Assembly (NCBI GenBank): GCA_020723305.1 | Contig: DYJC01000003.1 | Location: 270,418 to 334,417 of the forward strand | DNA from: Desulfosudis oleivorans | GTDB lineage: Bacteria; Desulfobacterota; Desulfobacteria; Desulfobacterales; SURF-7 | Reading direction: 5' to 3' | DNA length: 64,000 bases | Shown here: positions 38,105 through 57,900 of the stretch, one piece after another | Numbering within the stretch: position 1 is the stretch's first letter | Layout of the letters: the number at the start of each line of letters is the position of its first letter | Program-made: the position numbers and the translations under genes | Notes under the pieces: generated by a model | The model's database searches: none | Told to the model about the DNA's origin: nothing | Seen by the model: only the letters and a program-made list of their open reading frames with translations

Positions 38105-38132
38105 TTAACTTTTCTGCGATATGCGCCGATTG
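38105..38132 (+). promoter_or_regulatory. Sigma28 (FliA)-like promoter upstream of the glycosylation operon
   Basis: TTAA-N16-GCCGATTG, compared with the enterobacterial consensus TAAA-N15-GCCGATAA. It lies about 40 nt upstream of the ATG at 38173. Confidence 0.4.
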
Positions 38133-39895: not shown

Positions 39896-42817
39896 ATGGG
39901 TACAAAAACAGAGAATTTTTTCAATGCCAATATGGCTGTTTTGAAGGAGACTCACCCGCATGTCTGGACCCTTTTTCAGGAAAACCGTTTTGAGCATATG
40001 GGGGAAATTCGCCGATCTCCATCCGGCAAACTCAATCTGGTTGTAACAGACAAGGAAGGCCGACAAACCTTTCTTCATGATCAGAATGATCCGGAAGCGG
40101 AAGTGCCGCAGTTTCTGGCAATGGTACCGGAAGAATCCACCGGCTTTATCGCCATGGTCGGGATGGGGCTGGCATATGCCCCCATGACCATTTTAAAAAA
40201 GAGGCCGTATATCCGTCATCTTGCGGTTTTTGACCGGCACCCGGGTATTCTCTTTCAGGCCATGCACCATCTGGATCTGACTCCTATGCTGTCCGACCCG
40301 CGTCTGCTTCTGGGAATCGGACCGGAGCCCGACATCCACGGGATTCTCATGCCGGCAACCCGGGCACTGCTGGTCGAGGCCATTCATACCCTCAAGCATG
40401 TACCCTCTTTTCGTCTGGATCCGGCCGGCTATGATGAACTCTATGACAAGGTATTTTCGTTTGTCAACGATTGCAATGTGGGCGGTGGGACTCTGTTTGC
40501 ATTTGGCGGCGACTTTCTGTCAAACCGTCTGGCCCATCTCACCGCCATGCCCCATAACCGGCTGATCGATCATGTAAAGGGTGCCTTCACCGGCAAGCCT
40601 GCCATTCTTGTGGCCGGCGGCCCTTCTCTGGACAAAAACATCCATGTGCTTGCACAGGCGAAGGACAAGGCGGTGATCATCGCCGCGGACACGGTGCTGA
40701 CCAAACTGATCAAACACGGGGTGCGGCCGGACTTTGTCACCTCCATTGATATGGAGGAGTTTACGTTCGAGAAGATCGCCGGTGCCATTCCGATGCTGAA
40801 CCATACGGACAAAATCGGGCTGATCTGTTCCTCCTGGGTGACCCCCAGGATGCCCAAGACCTTTCCCGCGTCACAGGTGTACTGGACCTTTACCGGCCGT
40901 CCTCTGGAAAACCGCATCAACATGCTCCTGGGTGGTTCCGTTTCCATGCCGGGGGCTAAAACCGTGGCCCATTTAAGTCTCCAGGCAGCCGTGGTCATGG
41001 GCTGCTCGCCGATTATTTTTATTGGACAGGATCTGGCCTTTTCGGACGACAAGGATCATGCCGATGGAACGGTTTTAACCAACCAGACGGCCATTACCTC
41101 CTTTCTTCAATCCAGCGACGTTATCTGGGTGGACGGCGTTCTGGGAAAGAAAGTGCCGACCAACCGTGGTTTTTTCAGTATGAAAGCCTACTTTGAACAG
41201 TTTATCGCCGGAACGCCGGGACATTACATCAATGCTACCGAAGGAGGCGCCCATATCGACGGAACGGAAGTTTTTACGCTGCAACAAGCCCTTGATCAAT
41301 TTTGCATGGAGGATCAAAACATTGCCGCCATCACTGCCCGCAGCGCCGTTGTTGATCGGAATCCGGGCAGGGAGCTGACTTCCAGTCTGCGCAACATACT
41401 TTCCAAGGTCAACCATCTCCGGAAGCTGATCAAAAAAGCCGATGCCCGATCGATTACAATTACGCGGGAGATTGGAAAACTTCAGCAGCGCGGCGGCATG
41501 TATACTTCCTTGAGGATGCTGCCCAAAAATCTTCAGCAGATGATTATTGAACTTAACAAGCTTCATGACGAAGTGGATGCAGCCAATCAGATATGGGAGT
41601 ACCTGGATGAAATCACCCTGGAAGGTGTCCGTCGGAGCGAGCGTCATCTGCATATCATTAAAATGCTGGAAGGAAAACCGGACAGATATATCGAGTGGCT
41701 GCTGAAAAGCATGGAACGGCTCGACGAGATCAACGGGGTTAGAAAAAATGTTCTGGACTTTTTCCATCAGCACCTTTCAAAGGCAATGCATCATTTTTTA
41801 CAGGAAGCCAAAATACGCGGGGAAATGGAAAAACAGGGCGACAGCATCACCTCCTGCTTGAAACTGGCAAAGCTGTATTTGGAATCAGACGATATTGTGC
41901 TGGCCCAATCCGTGTTGAAGCCTTTTGATGGTGTTTCCGGCGGTCCGGCTGAGATTTCTCTGTTCCTCGGGATGATCGCTGCCTGTCAGACCGAATTTGA
42001 CAAGGCGGAATTCCATTTCCGGGAAGCATGTCAAAAAGACTCCTCCTGCCATGAACAAATTAAAACCTTCCGGAAAAAGATGGGAGACACCTATATCCGG
42101 TATGCGGAGCGCCTCCGGTCGGAAGGCTATGATATCGGCACCATTCTGCTGAGAGGACTGCAATATTGTGAATCCAGCGACATCATCCGGACTTCGTTGA
42201 AAACCCTTTTCGAAGAGGAGATGCAGCGTATGGAAGCGAAAGCCGGGGATGGAAATCCGCTCTCTGCCGAACGCGAGATCCGCTTCTGGTATGATGCCCT
42301 GAAACAGAACAAACCTTTTGCCGCCTTGCTGACCGAAGATCTCAAAAAACGGTTGTGCTGCCTGAACGGTTTTATGCATGTCCGGCAAAACCATCCGGAA
42401 GAAGCGGCGGAGAGTTATGAGAGAGCATTGGATCTTTCAGCAGATGATCCGGAGCTCCATCTGCTTCTGGCGGATGTCCATTTTGCCGCACACGATTTTA
42501 CCAAGGGCATTGTCAGTCTCGACAGAGCCGTGGCATTGGACCGGAATTACGCCCGGTACTGGGAGAACATGGGTGATAACCTGTCAGCGGCCGGACAGCC
42601 GCTGGATGCTATCGCGGCTTATGAAAGATGCATCCTGGCATTGCCGGAACATCTCCTGATACTGAAAAAAATCGGGGATTGCCACATGGCTGCGGATCAG
42701 CTCCCGGCAGCTCTGGAAGCGTATCAACAATTCAAGGTCAAATCCGGAATTGCGGTCAACGGATGTTCTAAGATCGGTCCGCAGAAAGAACTGGAATATG
42801 GGCAACCCTGTAGCTGA
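39896..42817 (+). CDS. maf: Motility accessory factor (Maf, DUF115/MptE-like flagellin nonulosonic-acid glycosyltransferase) fused to a C-terminal TPR region
   Basis: DUF115 core KPAILVAGGPSLDKNIHVL...AVIIAADTVLTKLIKHGVRPDFVTSIDMEE...IIFIGQDLAFSD. The C-terminal ~350 aa contains TPR-like repeats. AGGAGG RBS upstream. Confidence 0.8.
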   Translation: MGTKTENFFNANMAVLKETHPHVWTLFQENRFEHMGEIRRSPSGKLNLVVTDKEGRQTFLHDQNDPEAEVPQFLAMVPEESTGFIAMVGMGLAYAPMTILKKRPYIRHLAVFDRHPGILFQAMHHLDLTPMLSDPRLLLGIGPEPDIHGILMPATRALLVEAIHTLKHVPSFRLDPAGYDELYDKVFSFVNDCNVGGGTLFAFGGDFLSNRLAHLTAMPHNRLIDHVKGAFTGKPAILVAGGPSLDKNIHVLAQAKDKAVIIAADTVLTKLIKHGVRPDFVTSIDMEEFTFEKIAGAIPMLNHTDKIGLICSSWVTPRMPKTFPASQVYWTFTGRPLENRINMLLGGSVSMPGAKTVAHLSLQAAVVMGCSPIIFIGQDLAFSDDKDHADGTVLTNQTAITSFLQSSDVIWVDGVLGKKVPTNRGFFSMKAYFEQFIAGTPGHYINATEGGAHIDGTEVFTLQQALDQFCMEDQNIAAITARSAVVDRNPGRELTSSLRNILSKVNHLRKLIKKADARSITITREIGKLQQRGGMYTSLRMLPKNLQQMIIELNKLHDEVDAANQIWEYLDEITLEGVRRSERHLHIIKMLEGKPDRYIEWLLKSMERLDEINGVRKNVLDFFHQHLSKAMHHFLQEAKIRGEMEKQGDSITSCLKLAKLYLESDDIVLAQSVLKPFDGVSGGPAEISLFLGMIAACQTEFDKAEFHFREACQKDSSCHEQIKTFRKKMGDTYIRYAERLRSEGYDIGTILLRGLQYCESSDIIRTSLKTLFEEEMQRMEAKAGDGNPLSAEREIRFWYDALKQNKPFAALLTEDLKKRLCCLNGFMHVRQNHPEEAAESYERALDLSADDPELHLLLADVHFAAHDFTKGIVSLDRAVALDRNYARYWENMGDNLSAAGQPLDAIAAYERCILALPEHLLILKKIGDCHMAADQLPAALEAYQQFKVKSGIAVNGCSKIGPQKELEYGQPCS

Positions 42818-42821
42818 TGGA

Positions 42822-44555
42822 ATGGAAACCGACGCCATGCTGAAAACGGCGGTGAAATGCCATCAGGATGGGAATCTTTCCGAAGCAGACCGGAGTTATT
42901 CGGCCATTTTGGTCGAGGAGCCGGATCATGCCGATGCATTACACCTGAAAGGACTCATCGCCTACCAGTCCGGGTGTTTTGAAGATGCGGCCCGGCTGAT
43001 CCAAAGGGCCATTTCCGTCAATCCCGGTTCACCTGAATTCCATAACAGCCTGGGCGCAGTTCAGGAAGCATTGGGTGATCCGGTTTTATCCATCGGCAGT
43101 TATGTAAAGGCGATTGAAAACCATCCGGATTACATTGACGCCTATGTCAATCTGGCGCGTCTGCGTCCGGATGTGGCGGAAGTCCGTTTTAATCTGGCGA
43201 GTATCCTCCACCGGCAGGGAAATATCGGGTCTGCCGTTGAGAATTACAAGGCAGCGGTCCGGCTTCAGCCCGAAAACGTCATTGCGCTCAACAATCTGGG
43301 CCTGACCCTTCAGGAAATGGGTAAAACAAGTGAAGCTGTCGATTGCTATATCCGTGCGGTGAATCTGATGCCGGATTTTTCCGAGGCCCGTTATAATCTA
43401 GGCCGCGTGTACCAGCTTCAGGGGGATTTGGAAAAGGCCGTCGAAGAATACCGCCGGGCAATCCGGACGACCCGCGGGCCATCTTCCCGGATTTTTTATA
43501 ACTGGGCCTTGGCCTTGCAGAAACTCGGCCAATATGATGAGGCTATCCAGCGGTATGCGGATGCTGTCCATGATGATCCGGGATATGCGGAAGCCCATGT
43601 GAACCGGTCGCTCCTGTTGCTGCTGACCGGCCGTTACCGGGAAGCCTGGCCCGAATATGAATGGCGGCGGAGGCGTCCGGACTGGCTCTCGGCTAATCCA
43701 ATCTATCCGGATCTGCCGTCCTGGGACGGAAGCCCTATGTCTGGAAAACGCATTCTGGTTCAGGCGGAGCAAGGTTTCGGCGATACGATTCAGTTTGTCC
43801 GATATCTGCCCCTGGTCAAAAATCGCTGCGGGCGGATTATTCTCGAAGCACCTCCGGCCCTGCACCCTTTGTTGAAATCCCTGTCCGCCATTGATGAGAT
43901 GGCGGCACCGAATCCGGAAAACGCTAAAAAGGCCGATGCCGGTGTGCATCTGTTGAGCCTTCCCGGGATCTTTCAGACCACCGTAAATACGATTCCCATG
44001 GTGGTTCCCTATCTGCATGCTCCGGCCGGAAAAATAGAAAACTGGCAAGACCGGATTTCCGGAAACGGGTTCAACATCGGTGTGGTTTGGTCCGGCAATC
44101 CAGCCCATCCGGAAAATACTTTTCGCTCCTGTGATCCAGGTCATTTTGTTTCCCTGGTATCCCTGCCGTCCGTGAACCTGTACAGCCTGCAAAAAGGCCC
44201 GGCCGCGGACAGGCTTCGGGAAACGCCCGGCTGCGCCGGTATTGTGGATCTCGGACCGGAACTCCATGATTTTTCCGATACGGCCGCCGTCATAATGAAC
44301 CTGGACCTGGTCATTTCCGTGGATACGGCGCTGGTTCATCTGGCCGGTGCTTTGGGAAAGCCTGTCTGGACCCTGCGCTATCATCAGCCTTACTGGGTAT
44401 GGGGAACACACGAAAACAAATCACCCTGGTATCCCACCATGCGGATTTTCCGGCAATCGCCTGCGGAGAGCTGGAGTCAATTTTTCCAGCATATTATAGA
44501 GACACTGCACCAATATGTTTATTCGCCATATGGCATGCGGGAAAAGGAAATTTGA
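42822..44555 (+). CDS. TPR-repeat protein with a C-terminal GT-B (GT9/heptosyltransferase-like) glycosyltransferase domain
   Basis: N-terminal TPR units (ALHLKGLIAYQSG..., ALNNLGLTLQEMG..., ARYNLGRVYQLQG...). The C-terminus carries EQGFGDTIQFVRYLPLV and ISVDTALVHLAGALGKPVW. The start is ambiguous (42798, 42822 or 42837). Confidence 0.75.
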   Translation: METDAMLKTAVKCHQDGNLSEADRSYSAILVEEPDHADALHLKGLIAYQSGCFEDAARLIQRAISVNPGSPEFHNSLGAVQEALGDPVLSIGSYVKAIENHPDYIDAYVNLARLRPDVAEVRFNLASILHRQGNIGSAVENYKAAVRLQPENVIALNNLGLTLQEMGKTSEAVDCYIRAVNLMPDFSEARYNLGRVYQLQGDLEKAVEEYRRAIRTTRGPSSRIFYNWALALQKLGQYDEAIQRYADAVHDDPGYAEAHVNRSLLLLLTGRYREAWPEYEWRRRRPDWLSANPIYPDLPSWDGSPMSGKRILVQAEQGFGDTIQFVRYLPLVKNRCGRIILEAPPALHPLLKSLSAIDEMAAPNPENAKKADAGVHLLSLPGIFQTTVNTIPMVVPYLHAPAGKIENWQDRISGNGFNIGVVWSGNPAHPENTFRSCDPGHFVSLVSLPSVNLYSLQKGPAADRLRETPGCAGIVDLGPELHDFSDTAAVIMNLDLVISVDTALVHLAGALGKPVWTLRYHQPYWVWGTHENKSPWYPTMRIFRQSPAESWSQFFQHIIETLHQYVYSPYGMREKEI

Positions 44556-44557
44556 AT

Positions 44558-45310
44558 ATGCAGGCAAATGAAAAGGAATATGAATTTACAGTTCCCGGTG
44601 CGGTAGCGCTGGCCCCGGACGGCATGGAGCATGCGCTGGATGTGGGTTGCGCCGGAGGCGCCTTGGGATCTTATCTGAAATCCCAAAAAAAATATAAAAC
44701 AGTTGTCGGCATCGAGTACAGCAAATCCTCAGCAGCCAAAGCACGCCTTCTCCTGGACGAGGTCTACGTCGGAGATGCCTGCATCATCGATCTGCCGACA
44801 AAATACCGAAATTATTTTGATTTGATTGTCTACACCAATGTCCTTGAGCATCTGTATGACCCCTGGTCCGTCATCACCAGGCATAAAGCCTATCTGAGGG
44901 AAGGCGGCTATATGCTTGCGAGCATACCGAATATGCGAAATCTTTTCATCCTGCTGCATTTATTGATCGGGCGGTTTGACTATACCGAACTCGGTTTGCT
45001 GGATAAAACCCATATCCGATTTTTCACGGCAGACACGGCATTGGAGATGTTTATAAACGCAGGTTTTATTCTTGATCGCATGGCAAGAACCATCTGCGAT
45101 GCCAAATGGCATGCAGACTTAAACGACCGGCCCATTCAGCCGGCGATTCTGGAATTTTATGATAAAATTTATCAGAAGCATATGCGTGGAGAGGATTGTT
45201 CGTCGGATTTGCAGCAATGTTTCGGGCTGTTTTCGTTCACTATAGAGGCTACCGTAGAATTTCTTACCAGCCAATATCATCTGCTGCTCAGGAAACCCGT
45301 AACAGGTTAA
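44558..45310 (+). CDS. Class I SAM-dependent methyltransferase
   Basis: Motif I ALDVGCAGGALGSYL and the post-I block DLIVYTNVLEHLYDPW. The ATG at 44558 begins 3 nt after the upstream TGA. Confidence 0.8.
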   Translation: MQANEKEYEFTVPGAVALAPDGMEHALDVGCAGGALGSYLKSQKKYKTVVGIEYSKSSAAKARLLLDEVYVGDACIIDLPTKYRNYFDLIVYTNVLEHLYDPWSVITRHKAYLREGGYMLASIPNMRNLFILLHLLIGRFDYTELGLLDKTHIRFFTADTALEMFINAGFILDRMARTICDAKWHADLNDRPIQPAILEFYDKIYQKHMRGEDCSSDLQQCFGLFSFTIEATVEFLTSQYHLLLRKPVTG

Positions 45311-45328
45311 AAAATAAGGAATTTTTAA

Positions 45329-46570
45329 TTGGATCAGCGTAAAACCAGATATCATGTTGTTGTTGTCATTGAAAAAGGTATTGCCGCCCCCAACATTATG
45401 CTGGATTTTGCATCAGCGTTTGAAGAGCTGGGTCATTCCGTTTTCCTGATTGATTTCCGTCTTCTGGAAACCATGGCATCCGATGAGGAAAAAATCACCT
45501 ATTTTGAAAATATCCGAAAAGAATTAAAGCAGTTCGAGCCGGATTTTGCCGTCGGATATGGCAACAGCGTGTTTATTTCACTGCCCCCTAATGATCCGGA
45601 ACGCCATTTTTTCGAGGAATTGAACCTGGATTATGTCTCTCTGTTTTTCGACAACCCGCTCCTGACCGGTTTTATCAGTTCCATGCTGACCTTGCATTCC
45701 CCCCGGTATACGGTTTTTATCTGGGATCGGAACCACCTTGCCGAATTCCGCAAGCAGCATAAAAAGGAAGCCTTTTATCTGCCACTGGCCACCAATCCAA
45801 AGATATTTCAGCCCCTTGCCTCGGAACCGGAATTTGAGGCAGATGTCGGTTTTATCGGGTCGGTCAGCACGACAGCGGATTATGATCTGGAGCGGACTCA
45901 GAATGGCTGGCACGAATGGCTCATCAGTTTTGCCCGGAATATTGTAGATGAGGTCCGCCGGCACCCGGGTGTTACCGTGACGGAAATCATTCATACCTTT
46001 CGGGATGGTTTCCCGGATGAAACCCGAAAGGCCCTGGACGATTTTTCCAGGCGGGATGATTACACCTCCTTTATCCTTTCCATATATGATGAAATCGGAG
46101 CCCGTGACCGCATGGATGCCATCCGCCTGTTGCCGGACGACCTGCGGGTGCACGTCTACGGAGGTCCCGGCTGGAACCGTCTGAGCAAACCCGGCTTGCA
46201 TCTGAAAGGCCCGGTCGATTATCATCGGACGGCGCCCCTGGTATATAATTCGGCCCGGATCAATCTGAATGTCACCGGCAGCCAGTTGTCCGCAGCCGTG
46301 AATCAGCGGGTGTTTGATGTGGCTGCATGCGGGGCTTTCCTGCTTACGGATTATCGAACCGCCCTGGATGAACTGTTTGATGTGGGCCGGGAAGTGGCCT
46401 GCTATCGCAACCTGAATGAATTAAACCAGTTGACGGATTATTACCGGAGCCATCCGGATCTGCGGCTGGAAATCGCAGCCCGGGGCAGGGAACGGGTGCT
46501 TGCCGAGCACACCTATTGCCACCGGGCCCAGCGCATCATCGACCTTTTTCAATACCGCGCATCCTATTGA
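45329..46570 (+). CDS. CgeB-family glycosyltransferase (DUF3880 plus GT1-like C-terminus)
   Basis: C-terminal block INLNVTGSQLSAAVNQRVFDVAACGAFLLTDY...RGRERVLAEHTYCHRAQRI is typical of CgeB-like enzymes. The TTG start follows AAGGAA. Confidence 0.65.
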   Translation: MDQRKTRYHVVVVIEKGIAAPNIMLDFASAFEELGHSVFLIDFRLLETMASDEEKITYFENIRKELKQFEPDFAVGYGNSVFISLPPNDPERHFFEELNLDYVSLFFDNPLLTGFISSMLTLHSPRYTVFIWDRNHLAEFRKQHKKEAFYLPLATNPKIFQPLASEPEFEADVGFIGSVSTTADYDLERTQNGWHEWLISFARNIVDEVRRHPGVTVTEIIHTFRDGFPDETRKALDDFSRRDDYTSFILSIYDEIGARDRMDAIRLLPDDLRVHVYGGPGWNRLSKPGLHLKGPVDYHRTAPLVYNSARINLNVTGSQLSAAVNQRVFDVAACGAFLLTDYRTALDELFDVGREVACYRNLNELNQLTDYYRSHPDLRLEIAARGRERVLAEHTYCHRAQRIIDLFQYRASY

Positions 46571-46626
46571 TTCTCTCCTTTTATATCTAACCCTGGAATA
46601 AATAACATAGGGAACCGGAAAAACAC

Positions 46627-46653
46627 TCAAGAAATTTCCCAATTTGTCGATTT
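46627..46653 (+). promoter_or_regulatory. Sigma28 (FliA)-like promoter of the flagellin gene
   Basis: TCAA-N15-GTCGATTT, with exactly the canonical 15-nt spacing. It implies a leader of about 160 nt. Confidence 0.45.
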
Positions 46654-46780
46654 ATCTTGTGTAGAGTCAAATATTTCTGCTCAGCAATTATCTGTCAAAA
46701 TCCAAAGGAGGTGATCGAAACGAATTAAGTTTCTACCTTAAAACAATAAGTTATCTTTTCTATCAATGATTTCACAAAAT

Positions 46781-46796
46781 GGGGAAAGGAATCCCC
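46781..46796 (+). promoter_or_regulatory. Leader hairpin presenting GGA in its loop, 14 nt upstream of the SD; candidate CsrA-type site
   Basis: GGGGA-aaggaa-TCCCC gives a 5-bp stem with an AAGGAA loop. The SD GGAGG at 46810-46814 supplies a second GGA. Confidence 0.3.
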
Positions 46797-46821
46797 GTCA
46801 CCCACACATGGAGGTTAGATC

Positions 46822-49800
46822 ATGGCATTACGAATCAATACCAACGTATCGGCGTTGAACGCCCACAAAAACATGCTTAAGAATGATGGCTTGCTGTCAT
46901 CTTCACTGGAGAAGCTGTCTTCCGGTCTGCGCATCAACAAGGCAGCCGATGATGCTTCGGGCATGGCCATCGCTGATTCCCTCAAATCCCAGGCAATGAG
47001 TCTGGGCCAGGCCATCCGGAACGCCAATGACGGAATAAACATTGTGCAGACCGCTGATGCCGCCCTGGAAGAATCCATTAACATTGTCAACACGATTAAA
47101 ACCAAGGCCATCCAGGCAGCCCAGGACGGTCAGACGACCGATTCCCGGAAAGCCATTCAGGCGGATATCACCAAACTGATGGAAGAATTGGATATCATTG
47201 CCAAGACGACGGCTTTTAACAACCAGAAACTGCTGTTCGGTAATTTTACCAACAAGAAGTTTCAGGTGGGCGCCTATTCCGGAGAGACGGTCAATATTTC
47301 CATCGCCTCTTCCCAGTCCACCAAAATCGGTCATGTCACCACCGGTAAGCTGGCGCTAACCGGCGACCAGGCCGGTTCCGTGGAGCTGGCCATTTACAGC
47401 AACCTGCAGAACAGAAGTTTCCTGGTCGAGTCCACCAACGTTCAGTACAACAACTCCCGGGAAAACAGCCTGGGTGCGTTGGCGGACGCCATCAACAAAC
47501 TGAGTGATGTTCTGGGTATTTCCGCATCGGCCAAGGTGGAAAGCAAGACCGTTCTCAATATTGCCGGCGGCACCACGGATACGGATTTTGCTATCAACGG
47601 CGTCAACATCGGACAGTTGAATGTTGTGGCCAATGACGCGGATGGCGCCCTGGTCAAGGCCATCAACCAGAAAACCTCCCAGCACGGTGTCGTTGCCAGC
47701 GTGGACAACGCCGGCTTTATGACCATGACATCCACCGACCAGAGAGCCCTGGAGGTCAGTTACAGCAGTGCGGTCGGCAGCGGTCTTGGTACCGATGCCA
47801 TTTTCAGGGGAACCAACATGAGTACCTTTGGTTATATAACCCTCAATCAGGAAGGTTCGGCTGAAATTCAGGTCCTTGATGTAGGCGACGGCGGGGTTGT
47901 GGCCATTTCCAGTGATCTGGAAACCTCCGGCACTACCACCACCACCATCGACTCCACCCTGGGCACCGGGTCCACACTAGCCCAGAACTCTATCCTGGGT
48001 GCCGGTTGGACAGCCGATCAGAACATCACCGGAGGGACTTTTTCTTCTGCCATCACCACCACCCAGACATCCACCCTGGTCAGCGGTTCAGCCCTTGGTC
48101 AGAATTCGGTTCTGGGTGCGGGTACGGTTATCGGCGCCAGTTCGACATTCGGCGGCAATGGCCGGGTTGAGGAAGTGGCCAACACCACCGGTTCCAGTAC
48201 CATCGTCACCAGTTCCATCCTCCAGGCCGGTACGGTGCTGAATATTTCCTCCAGTGAGCAAATTCAGTCGGATATGACCATTGCCGCTTCCAGTACGGCG
48301 ACTTCCGCGAGTACCCTTGTCAGCGGCTCGATTTTGGCCATTGGCACGGTCCTGGCCTCCGGGCAAGGGCTCACCAGCGGACTTTCCGGCGTGGCCCTGA
48401 CTATCGGCGCCACGGGCGTGGCTGCCGGCGCATCCGTACTTGGCTCCGGTGCTACATTGGCGTTGGGAACGGTACTGGCTTCCGGGCAATCTCTCACCAG
48501 CGGTCTTTCCGGCGTGGCGTTGACCATCGGCGCCACCGGCATAGCGGAAGGGCTATCTGTCTTAGGTTCCGGCGCAACACTGGCATTGGGTACGGTTCTG
48601 GCTTCCGGGCAAGGGCTCACCAGCGGTCTCTCCGGCGTGGCCTTGACCATCGCCGCAACAGGAGTGGCTGCGGGCGTTTCCGTTGTCGGTTCCGGCGCCA
48701 CCCTGGCTATCGGCACGGTTCTGGCTGCCGGCGCTACCCTGACCAGCGGTCTGGCTCAGACCGTCCAGATTGACACCACAACCACCAGCCTGTCCACTTC
48801 CGGTTCGACCGGCAGCGTACTGGCCGTGGGCACCAGGTTGATCGCAGGTCACACGACCCAGTATAATACAACCATTAGTGATACCGCCGCCACCACCAGC
48901 AGCAGCACTGTGGCCGCTAACAGTACTCTGGCCAACGGTACGGTGATCGGATCGGGCACGATATTCACGCAGGATATCAATACCACCAGCGGTGTTCTCA
49001 CCGCCGGTACGGCTGTTGTAGGAACAGCCACCCTATCCGGTGCCCAGACCCTGACGGCAGACAACACACTGCAAGGCGGCAGCCGCTTCATCAACGGTAC
49101 GGTTCTCGCCAGCGGTTCCTCCGTAGATACGGCCATCACCCTGACCTCGGCCATCACTACTACAGCGGCCTATGTTTTGGAAGCTGGGACCGTGATCGGT
49201 AGAGGTACTGATTTCACCGCCGGCTCCTCCATTGGCGGGGCAGCCACCCTCTTGACAGCGGAAACCCTTGCTGTTGCATCGGCCTACACCATGGCCTCCG
49301 GCCATAGCTTCGGCAGCGGGTCCATCATTGGTGTGGCCACCACAGAAGGCGGCTCCGGATATCTGGGCGTGGATGCTACCCTCATTGCCGCAGCCACCAT
49401 CAGCACCGCCGGTGCTGTAACCCTGGTGTCAGGCCATAGCTTCGGCAGCGGGTCCATCATTGGTACGGCCACCACAGCAGGCGGCTCCGGATATCTGGGT
49501 GTGGATGCTACCCTCATTGCCGCAGCCACCATCAGTACCGCCGGTGCTGTAACCTTGGTGACCGGCCACAGCTTCGGCAGCGGTTCCATCGTTGGTACAG
49601 CTACCACCGCCGGCGGTTCCGGGTACTTTGGTGTGGATGTTACCCTCATTGCCGCAGCCACGATTGGCGAAGACACGTTGGTGATCGGTCATGTCTTTGG
49701 CGCCGGCACTTTCCTGGAAAGCGGCACAACGGTCGGTACAGCCATCACCCTGCAGAACACCGCCACCCTTGGCGGCGATATGACCCTGAGTGCCGGGTCA

Positions 49801-50709
49801 ACGATTGCCGACGGCAGCGTGCTGCAGACCGGTTCCATCCTGTCCAATGACGCTACACTGTCATCCGGCATGACCCTGGTCAACGCCATGACCCTGAACA
49901 GTGACATGGATCTGGCATCCGGAAGTGTAATCCAGAACAATATTGGTACCTTGATTGCAGCAGGTTCGCTTGTCGGCGGTGATGCCACCCTGGCGTCCGA
50001 TCTGGAACTGGTAGGAGATCTGGACCTTGCAACCGGTTCCACCATCGGCAGCGGTTCGGTTCTGGTGAATGGATCGACTCTTGGCGGTGCTATCACCCTG
50101 GCCAACGCTGAAACCGTAAGCGGAGACGGCGGCATGAACCTGGCTGGGGGATCTTCCCTGGCCGCAGGCAGCGTGATCGCTAAAGGCACCTACCTGACCA
50201 ATAACATTGTTGCCTCAGATGGTAAGACATACACCACCGGTACGGTGCTGACCGACAATATCACCACATCGGGTGTTAACAGCATTACCGTGGAGATGAG
50301 TCTGCAGGAAGGTTCGGTTCTGGCGGCAGGCAGTGTTCTGGGTGCCAACCAGAGCTCCGGATCGGTCACGACCGATATAACCGACACTGAGTTGAATCGG
50401 CTCTCAAATGTGAGTGTACTCACTCAGGAATCGGCACAGAAAACCATTGCCATTGCAGATGCAGCGTTGAAAGATCTGGACAAGGTCAGGGCGGATCTTG
50501 GTTCTACTCAGAATCAATTGAATTCGACCATTGCCAATATCACAACCACAACCGTCAATGTAAAGGCTGCGGAATCCAGTATCCGTGAGGTGGATTTTGC
50601 AGATGAAGCATCAAACTTTACAAAGATGCAGGTTTTGATGCAGGCCAGCACATTCGCACTGGCCCAGGCCAATGCAACCTCTCAGCAGATACTGAGTCTT
50701 CTTCAATAA
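46822..50709 (+). CDS. Giant flagellin (1295 aa)
   Basis: Canonical N-terminus MALRINTNVSALNAHKNM...LSSGLRINKAADDASGMAIAD and C-terminus LGSTQNQLNSTIANITTTTVNVKAAESSIREVDFADEASNFTKMQVLMQASTFALAQANATSQQILSLLQ. An enormous Gly/Ser/Thr/Ala/Val/Leu-rich insert lies between them. fliD, fliS and flaG follow. Confidence 0.95.
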   Translation: MALRINTNVSALNAHKNMLKNDGLLSSSLEKLSSGLRINKAADDASGMAIADSLKSQAMSLGQAIRNANDGINIVQTADAALEESINIVNTIKTKAIQAAQDGQTTDSRKAIQADITKLMEELDIIAKTTAFNNQKLLFGNFTNKKFQVGAYSGETVNISIASSQSTKIGHVTTGKLALTGDQAGSVELAIYSNLQNRSFLVESTNVQYNNSRENSLGALADAINKLSDVLGISASAKVESKTVLNIAGGTTDTDFAINGVNIGQLNVVANDADGALVKAINQKTSQHGVVASVDNAGFMTMTSTDQRALEVSYSSAVGSGLGTDAIFRGTNMSTFGYITLNQEGSAEIQVLDVGDGGVVAISSDLETSGTTTTTIDSTLGTGSTLAQNSILGAGWTADQNITGGTFSSAITTTQTSTLVSGSALGQNSVLGAGTVIGASSTFGGNGRVEEVANTTGSSTIVTSSILQAGTVLNISSSEQIQSDMTIAASSTATSASTLVSGSILAIGTVLASGQGLTSGLSGVALTIGATGVAAGASVLGSGATLALGTVLASGQSLTSGLSGVALTIGATGIAEGLSVLGSGATLALGTVLASGQGLTSGLSGVALTIAATGVAAGVSVVGSGATLAIGTVLAAGATLTSGLAQTVQIDTTTTSLSTSGSTGSVLAVGTRLIAGHTTQYNTTISDTAATTSSSTVAANSTLANGTVIGSGTIFTQDINTTSGVLTAGTAVVGTATLSGAQTLTADNTLQGGSRFINGTVLASGSSVDTAITLTSAITTTAAYVLEAGTVIGRGTDFTAGSSIGGAATLLTAETLAVASAYTMASGHSFGSGSIIGVATTEGGSGYLGVDATLIAAATISTAGAVTLVSGHSFGSGSIIGTATTAGGSGYLGVDATLIAAATISTAGAVTLVTGHSFGSGSIVGTATTAGGSGYFGVDVTLIAAATIGEDTLVIGHVFGAGTFLESGTTVGTAITLQNTATLGGDMTLSAGSTIADGSVLQTGSILSNDATLSSGMTLVNAMTLNSDMDLASGSVIQNNIGTLIAAGSLVGGDATLASDLELVGDLDLATGSTIGSGSVLVNGSTLGGAITLANAETVSGDGGMNLAGGSSLAAGSVIAKGTYLTNNIVASDGKTYTTGTVLTDNITTSGVNSITVEMSLQEGSVLAAGSVLGANQSSGSVTTDITDTELNRLSNVSVLTQESAQKTIAIADAALKDLDKVRADLGSTQNQLNSTIANITTTTVNVKAAESSIREVDFADEASNFTKMQVLMQASTFALAQANATSQQILSLLQ
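48322..48756 (+). repeat. In-frame 123-bp (41-codon) tandem repeat, about 3.5 units, inside the flagellin gene
   Basis: The unit anchor GGN ACG GTN CTG GCY KCC GGS recurs at 48343, 48466, 48589 and 48712, an exact 123-nt spacing. The protein unit is GTVLASGQGLTSGLSGVALTIGATGVAAGASVLGSGATLAL. Confidence 0.9.
49294..49695 (+). repeat. In-frame 132-bp (44-codon) tandem repeat, about 3 units, inside the flagellin gene
   Basis: GGCCAYAGCTTCGGCAGCGG occurs at 49300, 49432 and 49564. Units 1 and 2 differ at 8 of 132 nt by manual alignment. The protein unit is SGHSFGSGSIIGTATTAGGSGYLGVDATLIAAATISTAGAVTLV. Confidence 0.9.
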
Positions 50710-50737
50710 CTCGCTGATTAATTGAAACCTTTAACCA

Positions 50738-50769
50738 GGGCCCTGGAAATTTTCCAGGGCCCTTTTTTT
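50738..50769 (+). terminator. Rho-independent terminator of the flagellin gene
   Basis: GGGCCCTGGaa-att-ttCCAGGGCCC gives a 9-11-bp GC-rich stem followed by T7. It begins 29 nt after the stop codon. Confidence 0.8.
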
Positions 50770-50771
50770 AT

Positions 50772-50799
50772 TCAAGTTTTTTTCATATTCTGCCGATGG
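50772..50799 (+). promoter_or_regulatory. Sigma28 (FliA)-like promoter of fliD
   Basis: TCAAGTTT-N12-GCCGATGG, compared with the consensus TAAAGTTT-N11-GCCGATAA. It lies directly after the flagellin terminator. Confidence 0.45.
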
Positions 50800-50813
50800 T
50801 ACTTAATAGGGGG

Positions 50814-50877
50814 TGGCCGGTTTGCCCGTTGGCCCGTTGGCCGGTTGGCCGGTTGGCTCGTTGGCTGGTTGGTTGGG
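50814..50877 (+). repeat. Eight tandem octamers (TGGCCGGT-like) in the fliD 5' leader
   Basis: The units are tggccggt ttgcccgt tggcccgt tggccggt tggccggt tggctcgt tggctggt tggttggg. They are contiguous with an 8-nt period. The array is non-coding and lies between the putative promoter and the fliD RBS. Confidence 0.85.
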
Positions 50878-50907
50878 TTCCGCAGAGGTTAAAATCAGGA
50901 GATCTGT

Positions 50908-52614
50908 ATGGCTTCTTTAGGCAGTGTGACAAGTCTCGGTGTGGGTTCAGGATTTGAACTTCAGCAGATGCTGGAGGATTTTCGAAAAATCGATGAAAAG
51001 CCCATTGATGCCATGAAAGATGAGATCAAGGTTATCGAAGAGCGGCTGACCAAATATGATGAAGTGCAAGCAAAGCTGATTGCGGTAAAGTCACATGCCC
51101 TGACCTTGTCTCTAGAATCCAATTTTCTGGAGCGGACCGTTGCCAGTTCCGATGAAGATATTGCTTCGGCTACTGTTCTTTCCGGAGCCACGGTGACCTC
51201 GAATGCGATTGAGATACTTCGTATGGCAACCAAGAGTTCCTGGCAGACGGCAGGGGTGGCTAGTACGGACACATCAACCTATATCCCCACCAGTCAGGAG
51301 TCGACAACCGGATTCAGCAGCGCAGATTCATCCTCGGTTTTAGATGAAGAAGAAGTCATGAGCATTACTTACGGCTCAGGCGATTCGGTTCGAACGATCA
51401 GCATGATCCTTCCCCAGGGCTCAACGCTGAACGATATCGTGGATTCGATCAATTCGGATTCAAGCAATCAGGATGGGCTTGGCGGAAAGTATGTAACCGC
51501 TTCCACCTTTCAGGGAGAGGATGACCTGTATTATCTTAGGATTGCGTCTTCTGCCGAAGGCAGCACCGAGGCGAACCGCGTCATGGTTACCGTGCAGCCG
51601 GAAGATTTTCAATTCAAGGCACCGGCTGTTGAATTTTCCTATACGCTGGGTGACGGTGAGGCGGTTGCTGTTTCCGTTGAGGCAGACACCACGTTTAATG
51701 AACTCGCAGATCTCATCAACAGTGATGTAAAAAATGCCGGGATTACGGCAAAGGTGATCAACGACGGCAGCAAGGATAATCCGTACCGGCTGGTTCTGAC
51801 CGCCAATCAGACCGGCGAGGACAACCGGATAACCATCAGCGGCATGCAGATGATCGAAGTCCAGGGTGCGGAAGGTGCCTCTCTGAATGCCGAGATCAGC
51901 GTTGACGGTGTTCTTTATCAGCGTCAGGTGAATACGGAAATCAGTGATATCATCCAGGGCGTCAAACTGACACTGGAGGGTGTGGGAGAGGTGAACATCA
52001 CAACATCGGCAGATGATGAACTGGTGAGAACCGAGATCATAGAAATGATTAAAGCCTACAATGAAGCGATCCAGGAGATCCGAAACCACAGCGGGTATGA
52101 TGCGGAAACGGAAGAATGGGGACTTCTTGCAACTTCTTATGGCATCAAAGGACTGCCGACCGAGTTGAACAGCATTATAAGTACAATGATCCAAACCAAT
52201 ACGGGTATTCAAAGTCTGTTTGATCTGGGTGTGGAGATCAACCGGGATGGAACCATCACAATTGATGAAGAAGCCCTGGACATCGCGATCGCAGCAAACC
52301 GTGAGGATCTGGCAGGCTTTTTTGTTACAGATGAGGATACCGGCCGTCTTGGATTGGGGGATATTCTAAATGAAAAGTTACGGAATCTGACCAGTTCCAC
52401 CGGTGTGATACAAACGGAAACGGATTTTTCCGAAAATGAACTATCCCAGTTGGAGAAAGATATCGAGGATTCCACAGCCCGTCTGGATAAGCGATATGAT
52501 CTTCTTGCCCGGCGTTTTGTGGAACTGGATATGTATATCGGGCAGATGAATGCACAGGCAACTTATCTCACGAGTGTTTTCAGCAGCGCTGAATCCTCGG
52601 GCAATAAAAACTGA
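50908..52614 (+). CDS. fliD: Flagellar filament cap protein FliD (hook-associated protein 2)
   Basis: N-terminus SLGVGSGFELQQMLEDFRKIDEKPIDAM and C-terminal coiled coil RYDLLARRFVELDMYIGQMNAQATYLTSVF. AGGAG RBS upstream. Confidence 0.9.
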   Translation: MASLGSVTSLGVGSGFELQQMLEDFRKIDEKPIDAMKDEIKVIEERLTKYDEVQAKLIAVKSHALTLSLESNFLERTVASSDEDIASATVLSGATVTSNAIEILRMATKSSWQTAGVASTDTSTYIPTSQESTTGFSSADSSSVLDEEEVMSITYGSGDSVRTISMILPQGSTLNDIVDSINSDSSNQDGLGGKYVTASTFQGEDDLYYLRIASSAEGSTEANRVMVTVQPEDFQFKAPAVEFSYTLGDGEAVAVSVEADTTFNELADLINSDVKNAGITAKVINDGSKDNPYRLVLTANQTGEDNRITISGMQMIEVQGAEGASLNAEISVDGVLYQRQVNTEISDIIQGVKLTLEGVGEVNITTSADDELVRTEIIEMIKAYNEAIQEIRNHSGYDAETEEWGLLATSYGIKGLPTELNSIISTMIQTNTGIQSLFDLGVEINRDGTITIDEEALDIAIAANREDLAGFFVTDEDTGRLGLGDILNEKLRNLTSSTGVIQTETDFSENELSQLEKDIEDSTARLDKRYDLLARRFVELDMYIGQMNAQATYLTSVFSSAESSGNKN

Positions 52615-52655
52615 TCCTAATCAATGATTAAATAAGGTAAAAAAGGAGACCACGA

Positions 52656-53165
52656 ATGACATCATGTACCGGATATGATACGTATCGAAGTACCCATTTT
52701 GAAGGCATGGATCCGAAGAGGCTTATCCTGATGTTGTATGATGGGGCCTTAAAATATATTCGGATCGCAAAAGAGGGGATTGAGCAGGGGGATGTTCAGA
52801 AAAGAGGAGAAAATATAGGCAGGGTTATCGCCATTGTTGCGGAACTGAACGCCTGCCTGGATATCAGTATTCAGGATGATTCCGTTGAATTTCTGAGAGG
52901 GTTGTATACCGCCATCCTGGTGGAGCTGCCAAAGGTATCTATCCATAATGATGTAAAAATACTGGATCGGTCATATTCTTATATCGCCAGGCTGAAGGAG
53001 ATCTGGGAAAAAAATGTGATGGGAATTCAAGACAAAAAAGAGGTCACCATACCTTATGTGGAGGACAAACCAAAGGAAGAACCGGTATCCAGTATAAGGT
53101 ACTCAGGCAGATCAATTAACAACTATGGTTCGTATAATGGAAAAAGCACATCGATTTCTGTTTAA
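52656..53165 (+). CDS. fliS: Flagellin-specific export chaperone FliS
   Basis: Core LILMLYDGALKYIRIAKEGIEQGDVQKRGENIGRVIAIVAELNACLD. It carries an unusually long C-terminal tail. Confidence 0.85.
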   Translation: MTSCTGYDTYRSTHFEGMDPKRLILMLYDGALKYIRIAKEGIEQGDVQKRGENIGRVIAIVAELNACLDISIQDDSVEFLRGLYTAILVELPKVSIHNDVKILDRSYSYIARLKEIWEKNVMGIQDKKEVTIPYVEDKPKEEPVSSIRYSGRSINNYGSYNGKSTSISV

Positions 53166-54033: not shown

Positions 54034-56364
54034 TCACAACGCTTTGTTTTTTGCATCCAGCACATTCCGGATCATCGCCGCAAGTTCATTGATACCAAAG
54101 GGTTTCATCAACAGCCCCTTGGCTCCGATCTTTTTTGAAACCGCTTCTGTAATCGTATCTTTATAACCCGTACTGATAATGACAGGTAGTCCGGGTTTTA
54201 TTTTAAAGATTTCCCGGATCAGGTCTTCTCCGGTCAGTTGCGGCATGGTCATATCGGTGATCACCAGATCAAAAAGATCCGGTTCAGCCTTTAATTTGTC
54301 CAGAGCCCTGAGTGGATTGGTTTCCGCTTGCACACGATACCCCAGTCTCTCAAGCTGTTTTTGTGTAATCTGCGCGATTAATTCTTCATCATCCACAAAC
54401 AGGATTGTGCTGTTCCCTTCGGGTATTTCACAGGATATTTTTTTCTCTTCCTCACATTCAACATTCACCATCGGGAACAGGATACGAAAACTGGTTCCCT
54501 CATTGATCCGGCTTGTCACCTTGATATCCCCGCCATAATTTTTGACAATGCCGTGTACCACGGAAAGTCCCATTCCGCAACCTTTACCAACCTCTTTGGT
54601 AGTAAAATAGGGGTCGAAAATTTTCTCGATCACACCTTCATCAATTCCTTCTCCATTATCGCGAACCTCAAGTTGGACATAATTCCCGGCAGAAAGACAA
54701 TGATTGCTGTTCAAATCAGGCTTATCAATAAAGGTATTGGACAGTTCGATATCCAGCATCCCTTTTCTGTTTTCCATGGCATGAACAGCGTTTGTAAATA
54801 GATTCAGAATGATCTGGTGTATCTGTGTGGGATTGGCCATGACGATGCCAATTGGATCATGAACCGTTTTCCGGATCGTGATATTGGGTGGGGCAGAGGC
54901 TCGCAAAAGTTTTAGGGAATCCTCAATAACCATATCGAGCTTTATGGGTTTCAACTGGTCTTCGGCTTTCCAGCTGAAAATTAAAAGTTGCTGTATCACA
55001 TCTTTGGCCCGGAGGGTTGCATTTCGAATCTCCGCCAGATTTTTCCGGGCCGGATTCCATTCCGGCACGTCATCCATGGCGATTTCCGTATTACCGAGGA
55101 TGATACTCAGGATATTGTTAAAATTGTGCGCGATTCCGCCGGAAAGTGTACCCATGGATTCCATTTTCTGGGAATACCGCAGTTGTTTTTCAAGTGCTTC
55201 CTTTTCCTGTGCAGCGATTTTTCTTTCCGAGATGTCGCGGACAAAGCCCCGAAAACCTGCCGGTTGGTTATCCGAATCATATAGAAGGGTCACGGATGTT
55301 TCAATCCATCTACTTGTACCATCCGGCCGGGAAATCTTCCAGTCAATTCCTTTATTCGGTTTCCCGGTTCTGAATACCTCATTAAAAGTTTTGTAGACCT
55401 TATAGGCTGTTTCATCATCCATATATTTACGGTTATTCATTCCTATGAGTTCTTCTTTTCGATTGCCGGCAATTTTGCTCATGGAATCGTTACAGAAAAC
55501 CATATTACCGGCCAGATCCACTTCAAAATATCCATCCTCGAAAATATTCAGGATGGTCCGGTATCGCTCCTCACTGATTTTCAGGGTGTTTTCGGCAATG
55601 GTTTTTTTCTTTTCATTTTGTCTGGCATGCCAGATTGTGTATAAGGAAAGAAGAATGATGAAAAAAAGTATGACGGAAAAGAGATATTGAAGATTTAGGC
55701 TGAGCTGATGGATTCTTGTCTGTACATCTTCCAGGTAAATTCCGGTTCCAATGATCCATCCCCAGGGTTTAAATTCTCTTACATAGGAAAGCTTGGGAAC
55801 AATCCGGTCAGGATCATCCTTCCATTGCCACATATATTGGACATAACCCTGCCCGTCTGCTTTTACGATTTTTACAAATTCGACAAAAAGATGTTTTCCC
55901 TCCGGATCGCTATAATTGGTCAGATCTGAACCGTTTAACTCAGGCCGATAAGGATGCACCACCATAGAGGGATGCATATCAATGATCCAGAAATAATCCT
56001 TTCTTTCCGGTCCGTACCGCAGATCACGGATGTATTCTCTGGCCAGTTGCTGCGCCTGAGACCGGCTCATCTCCTTGGTTTGAACTTTTTTTTCGAAATT
56101 GTTCAGGATCTCCCAGGTCAGGGATGTCAATTCCTTGATGGTTTCACGTTTTGTAGACATCAGATTGGATTCAAATGAGGGCAGGGTCAGGAAAAAAACA
56201 GCGCCGATAAACAGAATAACTGTAATACCTACGGGTAATGCGACATTGGTCACCGTAGGTGCGGCAATGAATTGCAACATGCGTTTCAGTATGGTGTATG
56301 TCTGCCTGTTCTCAGCTATCATAATAGGAGCAATCCTGAATTCGTCTTTCCAGCCCGTCAACAT
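54034..56364 (-). CDS. Hybrid sensor kinase (Cache-type periplasmic sensor-PAS-HisKA-HATPase-REC)
   Basis: Cache-like block DYFWIIDMHPSMVVHPYRPELNGSDL...GYVQYMWQWKDD between two TM helices, then PAS/PAC. The H-box is GGIAHNFNNILSIILGNTEI, followed by GCGMGLSVVHGIVKNYGG and the receiver ILFVDDEELIA...DLVITDMTMPQLTG. No clear RBS was seen, so the start is uncertain (56280-56364). Confidence 0.85.
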   Translation of the reverse strand: MLTGWKDEFRIAPIMIAENRQTYTILKRMLQFIAAPTVTNVALPVGITVILFIGAVFFLTLPSFESNLMSTKRETIKELTSLTWEILNNFEKKVQTKEMSRSQAQQLAREYIRDLRYGPERKDYFWIIDMHPSMVVHPYRPELNGSDLTNYSDPEGKHLFVEFVKIVKADGQGYVQYMWQWKDDPDRIVPKLSYVREFKPWGWIIGTGIYLEDVQTRIHQLSLNLQYLFSVILFFIILLSLYTIWHARQNEKKKTIAENTLKISEERYRTILNIFEDGYFEVDLAGNMVFCNDSMSKIAGNRKEELIGMNNRKYMDDETAYKVYKTFNEVFRTGKPNKGIDWKISRPDGTSRWIETSVTLLYDSDNQPAGFRGFVRDISERKIAAQEKEALEKQLRYSQKMESMGTLSGGIAHNFNNILSIILGNTEIAMDDVPEWNPARKNLAEIRNATLRAKDVIQQLLIFSWKAEDQLKPIKLDMVIEDSLKLLRASAPPNITIRKTVHDPIGIVMANPTQIHQIILNLFTNAVHAMENRKGMLDIELSNTFIDKPDLNSNHCLSAGNYVQLEVRDNGEGIDEGVIEKIFDPYFTTKEVGKGCGMGLSVVHGIVKNYGGDIKVTSRINEGTSFRILFPMVNVECEEEKKISCEIPEGNSTILFVDDEELIAQITQKQLERLGYRVQAETNPLRALDKLKAEPDLFDLVITDMTMPQLTGEDLIREIFKIKPGLPVIISTGYKDTITEAVSKKIGAKGLLMKPFGINELAAMIRNVLDAKNKAL

Positions 56365-57868: not shown

Positions 57869-57900
57869 TCGGGTATATTGATAATCTGAGGAAATCATCA

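Follow-up and report, generated by a model that had tools for sequence, protein, structure and literature searches.

A giant flagellin is encoded at positions 46822-50709 of a 64,000-nt stretch of Desulfosudis oleivorans DNA (DYJC01000003.1, 270,418-334,417; hereafter the window, whose positions serve as coordinates throughout). In our judgement, a Desulfobacteraceae/Desulfosudis-like sulfate reducer quite probably has it as its structural flagellin, in which a left-handed beta-helix (LbH)-type insert coats the filament and is probably glycosylated. The reading frame is open over 3885 nt. With 1295 amino acids (aa) and flagellin termini, the product belongs to the giant flagellins, defined as those exceeding 1000 aa (Thomson et al. 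2018, PMC6248924). The gene and its domains are laid out as follows.

46822-50709, plus strand: giant flagellin gene, ATG start, 1295 aa (open reading frame, Pfam, NCBIfam, orthologue at locus L003)
46822-47346, plus strand: N-terminal D0/D1 helices, aa 1-175 (PF00669; alignment with PDB 9yh1 and 6x80)
47347-47883, plus strand: D2-type outer domain, aa ~176-354 (phmmer, AlphaFold2 (AF2), Foldseek; common to Helicobacter and Campylobacter flagellins)
47884-50382, plus strand: hexapeptide-repeat (LbH-type) insert, aa 355-1187, 833 aa, acidic (period of six, Hexapep, LbH profile matches, ratio of nonsynonymous to synonymous substitution rates (dN/dS))
50383-50709, plus strand: C-terminal D1/D0 helices, aa 1188-1295, and stop codon (PF00700; aligned with residues 405-513 of 9yh1)

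The termini are those of a flagellin, as the initial annotation had stated. Pfam Flagellin_N (PF00669) covers aa 5-143 and is matched in full (profile positions 1-139, E 5.6e-43), and Flagellin_C (PF00700) covers aa 1210-1294 (E 5.6e-26). In a phmmer search of PDB sequences, aa 3-353 and 1188-1295 were aligned with FlaB of H. pylori (9yh1), FlaA of C. jejuni (6x80) and FlaA of H. pylori (9ygu). The best NCBIfam models were those of FlaB and FlaA (1e-132 to 1e-111), whereas the FlgL model TIGR02550 reached just 2.3e-19. These matches support a flagellin rather than an adhesin merely sharing the terminal helices, and 'flagellin' is the correct annotation label for the gene. The central region is indeed oversized, but it is not the single insert previously described. 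By sequence comparison, the ~1025 residues separating the terminal helices are a conserved D2-type domain and a lineage-specific repeat region, the latter accounting for 833 aa. The D2-type domain was retrieved by Foldseek with an E-value of 1.7e-13 (to 9yh1, 6x80 and 9ygu), and the predicted local distance difference test (pLDDT) of the AF2 model exceeds 90 over aa ~174-444.

The repeat region has the composition first ascribed to it. Over aa 341-1190, 87% of the residues are Gly (16.2%), Ala (13.2%), Ser (13.3%), Thr (16.8%), Val (8.0%), Leu (10.0%), Ile (6.5%) or Asn (3.2%), and Lys (0.2%), Arg (0.5%) and aromatic residues (2.3%) are scarce. Neither Cys nor Pro occurs anywhere in the 1295-aa protein. 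Ser and Thr make up 254 of the 833 residues of the insert (30%), which also holds 42 Asp and Glu and six Lys and Arg. The short motifs that had been quoted for it do recur. The patterns [AG]SGS[VIL][VIL] and GS.[LIV]..G[ST][VIL][LIV] were each counted five times, and a generalised double hexapeptide 12 times. Residue identity at a lag of six positions is 0.225, compared with a baseline of ~0.09, and lies beyond all 500 shuffles (0.115 +/- 0.011, maximum 0.148). The autocorrelations of large hydrophobic residues and of Gly peak at lags 6, 12, 18, 24 and 30; for the large hydrophobic residues, the value at lag 6 is +0.29 over the whole insert. The periodicity is family-wide, as the ratio of lag-6 identity to baseline ranges from 1.6 to 3.2 (median 2.23) over 121 family inserts. 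The hexapeptide register holds for 60-100 residues and then shifts, and many such shifts are found along the insert. By these measures, the insert is ordered with a period of six and is not generic low complexity.

Kinship with LbH proteins was found with several profiles. Pfam Hexapep (PF00132) matched the 1295-aa protein with 31.3 bits (cut-off 27), and the LbH_EIF2B and NeuD-type models gave weak matches. Profile A3, built from aa 929-1190 and 20 cropped homologues, was compared with PDB and retrieved exclusively LbH proteins among the 60 matches listed, namely LpxA (2e-6), LpxD, GlmU, PglD-like proteins, QdtC, gamma-carbonic anhydrases and eIF2B-epsilon. Profile A5, which represents the whole insert and was built from 17 large orthologues, gave 34 PDB matches at E <= 0.01. 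Every one of them is an LbH protein, and together they tile profile positions 45-800. Moreover, Hexapep and LbH_EIF2B matched all 17 large orthologues (best 3.8e-25 and 1.5e-19). A beta-helix or solenoid had been expected from the recurring motifs. Of this expectation, the hexapeptide/LbH type of the repeat is supported at the sequence level, but the three-dimensional fold was not confirmed by structure comparison. In LbH geometry, one coil takes 18 residues and ~4.8 A, so that 833 residues would form no more than ~46 coils (~220 A). The AF2 model contains two-residue strands with a period of six residues, and its pLDDT is above 90 at aa ~934-1194 and 70-97 at aa ~355-525. In total, ~450 insert residues are modelled as regular strands with pLDDT above 80-90. 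The insert has to rejoin D2 at both of its ends, and its register shifts frequently, which makes several out-and-back segments likelier than one rod; this overall path and the left-handedness of the coils are predictions.

The gene is real and under purifying selection. An orthologue of 1294 aa, with an identity of 90% overall and 89% over the insert, occupies the same place in the gene order at locus L003 of the independent metagenome-assembled genome (MAG) of Desulfobacteraceae bacterium SURF_7. Between the two, the insert differs by one single-codon indel in 832 codons, and its dN/dS is 0.13, next to 0.10-0.11 for the D0/D1 regions. Orthologues were also found at L002 (Desulfosudis oleivorans MAG; 1303 aa, 67% identity) and L004 (1290 aa, 61% identity). 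Compared with L002, the insert has a dN/dS of 0.38. Two tandem modules are embedded in the insert and were delimited with Tandem Repeats Finder (TRF).

48337-48705, plus strand: tandem module A, three copies of 41 aa, aa 506-628, followed by a degenerate fourth copy (TRF; protein copies 85-90% identical)
49300-49695, plus strand: tandem module B, three copies of 44 aa, aa 827-958 (TRF; common to orthologues)

At the DNA level, module A corresponds to a 123-nt unit repeated 3.2 times (48339-48731, 78% matches) and module B to a 132-nt unit repeated 2.7 times (49300-49661, 90% matches). Both modules are also present at L003, L002, L004, L021 and L007 with differing copy number, L021 having five of the 41-aa units. 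The copies are 71-93% identical among themselves at L007 and 68-83% at L002, but only 50-56% and 56-73% identical, respectively, to those of the window. Positional orthology of the copies is kept in the pair formed by the window and L003 only (93-95%). The greater likeness of copies within a genome than of positional counterparts across genomes points to concerted evolution or recurrent duplication. Over 120 homologues, the insert lengths fall into discrete classes of ~350, 435, 520, 665 and 820-950 aa.

The initial annotation knew of no described giant flagellin in such a genomic context or with such a repeat organisation. This claim of novelty did not hold, since Desulfobacterota contain hundreds of flagellins of 800-1440 aa with the same architecture and context, and some of them are already listed in supplement S1 of PMC6248924. 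That supplement includes proteins of Desulfobacterales and Desulfobacula (1251 aa), Desulfotalea (1128 aa) and RIFOXYD12_FULL_56_24 (1126 aa). The last of these is locus L056, a family member with the same period-6 signal. The family has thus been catalogued already and is experimentally unstudied. In a scan of one genome per species, 398 relatives were found, and a word-indexed protein search gave 977 matches at E <= 1e-10. The best 120 of these 977 matches are 788-1416 aa long, carry Flagellin_N, Flagellin_IN, Hexapep/LbH and Flagellin_C signatures, and are mostly annotated as flagellin. Their sources are Desulfobacula, Desulfobacter postgatei, Desulfospira joergensenii, Desulfobotulus alkaliphilus, Desulfurivibrio, Thiovibrio and many MAGs. 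The exact sequence of the 1295-aa protein has no record in the large protein collection.

The insert alone was searched exhaustively in 1.84 billion representatives, which gave 53 proteins at E <= 1e-3. All 30 matches at E <= 1e-10 are flagellins or flagellin fragments, so the strong homologues are not the non-flagellar adhesins that had been named as a possible refutation. The weak remainder includes FlgL-like proteins of the flagellin superfamily and one phage tail-fibre-like protein with hexapeptide stretches. Weakly related hexapeptide inserts were seen in the FlgL-like proteins P0144, P0155 and P0156 (N-terminus MRITNGM...). Furthermore, supplement S1 of PMC6248924 contains giant FlgL proteins (1155 and 1027 aa) from MAGs of Desulfobacterales and Desulfobacula. 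Considered together, they suggest that the hook-filament junction may carry the same kind of outer region.

Several genomes hold more than one member. In Desulfospira joergensenii DSM 10085, L020 and L030 are situated on one scaffold, ~30 kb apart, and the large or giant flagellins P0014 (1121 aa) and P0092 (1339 aa) both bear the name D. joergensenii. Further paralogue pairs are L011/L031, L016/L035 and L055/L068. The occurrence of paralogues of different size classes in some genomes suggests multi-flagellin or alternative filaments.

The control elements around the gene resemble those of late flagellar genes. The following elements were recognised.

46627-46653, plus strand: sigma-28-like promoter motif TCAAG-N16-CGATTT, located 195 nt upstream from the flagellin start codon (by consensus only)
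46781-46796, plus strand: leader hairpin GGGGA-AAGGAA-TCCCC, its loop containing GGA (alignment)
46808-46814, plus strand: Shine-Dalgarno sequence ATGGAGG, containing the second GGA
50737-50773, plus strand: intrinsic terminator, strong and the gene's own, with a hairpin at 50737-50763 (12-bp stem, eight G-C pairs) followed by a T-run
50772-50799, plus strand: sigma-28-like motif TCAAGTTT-N12-GCCGATGG upstream of fliD (13 of 16 consensus positions)
38105-38132: sigma-28-like motif TTAACTTT-N12-GCCGATTG in front of the modification island, 41 nt upstream of its first gene (12 of 16 positions; consensus match only)

A hairpin with a GGA loop and covarying stems, 40-50 nt upstream of the ATG, is present in 57 of 64 loci, and GGA is part of the Shine-Dalgarno sequence in all 64. 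For hag of B. subtilis and flaA of C. jejuni, repression by CsrA works through such a two-site GGA architecture. The leader at 46781-46814 fits this CsrA-type arrangement and would be compatible with translational control by CsrA. In ~23 related loci, csrA lies within 10 kb of the flagellin. An Rfam scan of 46400-51000 gave sub-threshold matches on the terminator only and no family for the leader. The promoter motif at 46627-46653 is kept in the window, L003 and L004, and a regular expression for it matches 22 of 64 loci. The motif in front of the modification island hints that the island may be co-regulated with the late flagellar genes. At the threshold used, the sigma-28 consensus scan gave ~18 matches in the window, so the sites are suggestive only. 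For sigma-54, strict patterns had no match in the window, and the looser GG-N10-GC and TGG-N9-TGC patterns had none upstream of the flagellin. An unusual G+C-rich tandem of ~7 copies of TGGCCGGT (or a 24-nt unit repeated 2.5 times) was observed at 50814-50872, in the gap that separates the flagellin terminator from fliD and a short way downstream of the motif at 50772-50799.

The genes for Maf and a tetratricopeptide-repeat (TPR) glycosyltransferase, said to be encoded upstream, are present as claimed, and a role in glycosylation is plausible by context. They belong to a modification island that precedes the flagellin. The neighbouring features are listed below (SAM, S-adenosylmethionine).

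38173-39835, plus strand: CmcI/rhamnosyl-O-methyltransferase-like protein and radical SAM protein, start of the modification island
39896-42817, plus strand: 973-aa fusion of a Maf-type flagellin glycosyltransferase with TPR repeats (PF01973 MptE-like, 5.3e-38; weak Maf_flag10_N)
42750-44555, plus strand: TPR and GT9-like glycosyltransferase (counterpart in L003)
44399-45310, plus strand: SAM methyltransferase (counterpart in L003)
45329-46570, plus strand: GT1-like/DUF3880 protein (counterpart in L003)
50908-53165, plus strand: fliD (filament cap, 568 aa; start 50908) and fliS (flagellin chaperone, 169 aa; start 52656)
88-7032, plus strand: pseudaminic-acid-type nonulosonic acid pathway, with radical SAM protein, WbuX amidotransferase, HisH/HisF-like pair, cytidylyltransferase, PseG-PseH-like fusion and PseI (Pfam)

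The top NCBIfam match of the 973-aa Maf protein is the PseD flagellin modification protein (3.7e-30, under the cut-off). The genes at 42750-46570 are kept in L003 at 59-92% identity. Context was counted in the 63 related loci whose flagellin reading frame could be delimited. A Maf homologue lies directly upstream of the flagellin in 45 of the 63 loci, and fliD and fliS are found downstream in 45 and 41 of them, respectively; contig ends cut many of the other loci. The pathway at 88-7032 lies ~40 kb from the flagellin, with unrelated genes between. Its assignment is carried by NCBIfam scores above the cut-offs for PseI (491.6 bits, cut-off 340), PseG (239.9, cut-off 153.6) and WbuX (338.3, cut-off 203.2); PseB and PseC were not seen within the window. 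The WbuX amidotransferase and the HisH/HisF-like pair suggest an acetamidino derivative. Given the 254 Ser and Thr residues of the insert and the nearby maf and Pse genes, heavy O-glycosylation of the insert can reasonably be inferred and is plausible by context.

Other genes of the window were noted in passing. Just upstream of the modification island, positions 34467-37958 encode a giant pilin-like or pseudopilin-like protein (1163 aa), which combines a prepilin-type methylation motif at the N-terminus with two LamG/concanavalin-like domains; it adjoins the flagellin in none of the 63 related loci. The flagellin region is flanked by sensor kinases (Cache-PAS-HK-receiver, HAMP-PAS-GAF-HK and receiver-PAS-HK-receiver, where HK is histidine kinase) and a MotA/ExbB-ExbD-ExbD cluster, at 54034-56364 (minus strand), 20454-28202 (plus strand) and 56727-58389 (plus strand). 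The Cache-type kinase adjoins fliS in L003 too (72% identity). At 15095-19122, a hybrid-cluster (prismane) protein is encoded beside a qNOR-type nitric oxide reductase that carries a cytochrome-c-like domain; this gene pair is a module for nitrosative stress in a bacterium presumed to reduce sulfate.

In flagellins, the D0/D1 helices build the filament core by polymerising. Those of the 1295-aa protein would do the same, and the D2-type domain would sit on this core. From the tip of D2, the ~833 residues of hexapeptide repeats would depart and return to it. After export, the repeats would most probably fold as one or more LbH-like solenoid segments coating the filament. The outcome would be an unusually thick, acidic and Ser/Thr-rich filament surface, to which the adjacent Maf enzyme would probably attach a pseudaminic-acid derivative by O-glycosylation. 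Scaled by mass from the Salmonella filament (495 aa, 24 nm; PMC6248924), its diameter would reach up to roughly 35-40 nm if packing were equally dense. In this view, the insert grew, and its length still changes, as the 41- and 44-residue modules are tandemly duplicated and homogenised. Expression is predicted to be of the late-flagellar-gene type, with a sigma-28-like promoter, an own terminator and a two-GGA leader fitting translational control by CsrA.

Several observations weigh against this explanation. The pLDDT of the AF2 model is below 50 at aa 546-715 and 768-907, and these stretches cover most of both tandem modules (copies 2-3 of A and 1-2 of B). A model of the insert alone, made from a shallower alignment of 21 sequences, had a mean pLDDT of 66, compared with more than 90 for the same region in the first model. 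With the long model, the Foldseek matches were to flagellin D2 alone and to no beta-helix; with the insert-only model, nothing significant was found, the best match being to phage tail fibres (E 0.15). Because AF2 confidence is limited and Foldseek gave no beta-helix match, the fold class is assigned from sequence profiles and periodicity. Moreover, the module lengths of 41 and 44 are multiples of neither 6 nor 18, which, together with the repeated register shifts, makes a single regular LbH rod unlikely. As for the flagellin assignment, the top NCBIfam model, PRK13588, scored 443.5 bits, under its cut-off of 503, so the curated full-length flagellin cut-off was not reached. However, the missed cut-off excludes those specific subfamilies and not the flagellin superfamily, and the models, with 282-576 positions, cannot span the insert. 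A csrA gene was found neither in the window nor at L003.

How the insert is organised could also be explained without a regular fold. It is rather unlikely that the insert is mostly a disordered, mucin-like Ser/Thr/Gly brush acting mainly as a glycan carrier, with the hexapeptide signal as a by-product of repeat amplification. Such a brush would agree with pLDDT values below 50 over ~300 residues, the low confidence of the insert-only model and the lack of a Foldseek match for the insert, as well as with the composition (30% Ser and Thr, 16% Gly) and very low charge. It agrees poorly with the hydrophobic period of six, which spans the whole insert and all 121 family inserts, with the low dN/dS and near absence of indels relative to L003, with the ~450 residues modelled as regular strands, and with LbH profile matches that tile the whole insert. 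Besides, the low-confidence AF2 parts are lineage-specific repeats thinly covered in the AF2 input alignment. That the filament displays an LbH acyl- or acetyltransferase with enzymatic activity, comparable to the proteolytic flagellins, has next to no probability. All PDB and NCBIfam matches of the insert are indeed LbH acyl/acetyltransferases, gamma-carbonic anhydrases or eIF2B-epsilon, but they are confined to the repeat scaffold. The idea was rejected on the alignment of A3 with LpxA, in which the catalytic-histidine segment CHIAHDC faces non-His consensus positions. Only six Lys and Arg occur in the 833 residues, and no substrate-binding domains flank them. LbH transferases are trimers that use acyl-CoA or acyl-ACP, substrates absent outside the cell.

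Two further alternatives concern the protein as a whole. A surface or adhesin protein exported by the flagellar type III secretion system, or a FlgL-like junction protein, could have kept flagellin termini and not be a propeller subunit at all. Indeed, cell-surface flagellin homologues exist (PDB 2zbi and 3k8v are among the phmmer matches), as do FlgL-like proteins with similar inserts, and giant FlgL proteins are known from Desulfobacterales MAGs. We regard this possibility as very unlikely, because the D0/D1 regions are 60-90% identical to those of the family and align end to end with filament-forming FlaA and FlaB, while the FlgL models score ~110 orders of magnitude worse than FlaB/FlaA. 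The canonical flagellin-fliD-fliS position, the flagellin-type leader, the own terminator and the status as sole flagellin in 64 kb also speak against it. The adhesin idea in particular was rejected on the NCBIfam flagellin models, the insert-only matches and the conserved fliD/fliS context. A pseudogene or an assembly artefact caused by expansion or collapse of repeats, about which concern had been raised at the outset, is extremely improbable. Two internal tandem repeats with 78-90% DNA identity and the missing database record of the exact protein are what such an artefact could leave. Against it stand the open frame under purifying selection, the one-codon length difference from the independent MAG L003, and the near-equal lengths and shared modules of L002 and L004.

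The explanation as a structural flagellin with an LbH-type coat can be taken one step further, albeit tentatively. The hexapeptide modules might form a continuous LbH protein sheath round the filament, with module copy number tuning its thickness, stiffness or surface identity, and FlgL-like inserts might extend the sheath to the hook-filament junction. We consider this possible but doubtful. The rung spacing of a beta-helix (~4.8 A) is close to the axial rise per subunit of the filament. Such a sheath would be an outer-domain architecture unseen in any flagellar structure so far. Across Desulfobacterota, surface identity would then mean glycan display, phage evasion or mineral-surface behaviour, and copy number would be changed by unequal recombination, with homogenisation inside each genome.

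If the structural explanation holds, a whole group of sulfate reducers, of the rank of an order and of importance in the environment, swims with filament subunits of two to three times the usual mass. These subunits would carry a coat of beta-helix repeats and probably also of pseudaminic-acid glycans. It would raise the question of how a 126-kDa, 46-coil repeat protein is exported unfolded through a 2-nm channel and folded at the tip. Other questions are the role of a thick, acidic, glycosylated filament in sediment motility and the evolution of repeat copy number. An LbH-type class would be added to the catalogue of flagellar outer domains, with a possible use in engineered filaments. The flagellin is a good target for cryo-electron microscopy and glycoproteomics and of structural interest, but it is neither a categorical surprise nor a new kind of system.

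The closest solved relatives are FlaA and FlaB of H. pylori and FlaA of C. jejuni (9ygu, 9yh1, 6x80), whose D0, D1 and first outer domain align with aa 1-353 and 1188-1295. They also have maf next to the flagellin. These flagellins of H. pylori and C. jejuni undergo Maf-dependent glycosylation with pseudaminic acid, and the translation of flaA is controlled by CsrA in C. jejuni. In contrast to the giant flagellin, they are 508-576 aa long, and their ~50-140 distal residues are replaced here by the 833-aa repeat region.

Among giant flagellins, those of Bermanella marisrubri and Oleibacter marinus, two gamma-proteobacteria, form filaments of at least 30 nm, compared with 24 nm (PMC6248924). The same study reported convergent origins across several phyla, including delta/epsilon-proteobacteria, and does not mention beta-helices. 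The giant flagellins of that study share the size class, the conserved D0/D1, an enormous central region and growth by internal tandem duplication with the Desulfobacterota protein. However, the inserts of the Oceanospirillales proteins are tandem 'DE' domains with a Gly-rich DX insert, whereas the Desulfobacterota insert is of the hexapeptide/LbH type. No Oceanospirillales protein, e.g., with the DE regions of Bermanella, was among the insert-only matches from the 1.84 billion representatives, which were limited to flagellins of the Desulfobacterota type and a few weakly matching hexapeptide proteins. The flagellin of Geovibrio thiophilus (793 aa, PDB 9au6; PMC11532411) is the largest solved and has a strongly negative filament surface. 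Its match to the 1295-aa flagellin is confined to D0/D1 (aa 1-143). The two are alike in the negative surface, which is predicted for the 1295-aa protein, and in being examples of very diverse, independently acquired outer domains. The text of this 2024 outer-domain survey (PMC11532411) names pectate-lyase-like, WD40 and peptidase clusters and no hexapeptide/LbH cluster. Full-text literature searches on beta-helix or hexapeptide flagellins and on Desulfobacter flagellar filaments came upon no account of such an architecture, and the searched literature contained no filament image for the Desulfobacterota hexapeptide-flagellin family.

With the known LbH proteins (LpxA, LpxD, GlmU, PglD, gamma-carbonic anhydrase and eIF2B-epsilon; PF00132, PF25084), the insert shares the period of six and one large aliphatic position amid small residues and Gly. 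Those proteins are intracellular trimeric enzymes or scaffolds of 5-10 coils. The insert, in contrast, would form up to ~46 coils in an exported filament subunit, with many register shifts, no catalytic residues and a fold predicted from sequence. As far as searched, three features are descriptively new: an outer region that is hexapeptide/LbH-type throughout, its construction from copy-number-variable modules homogenised within genomes, and a family-wide maf-flagellin-fliD-fliS layout with a CsrA-type leader.

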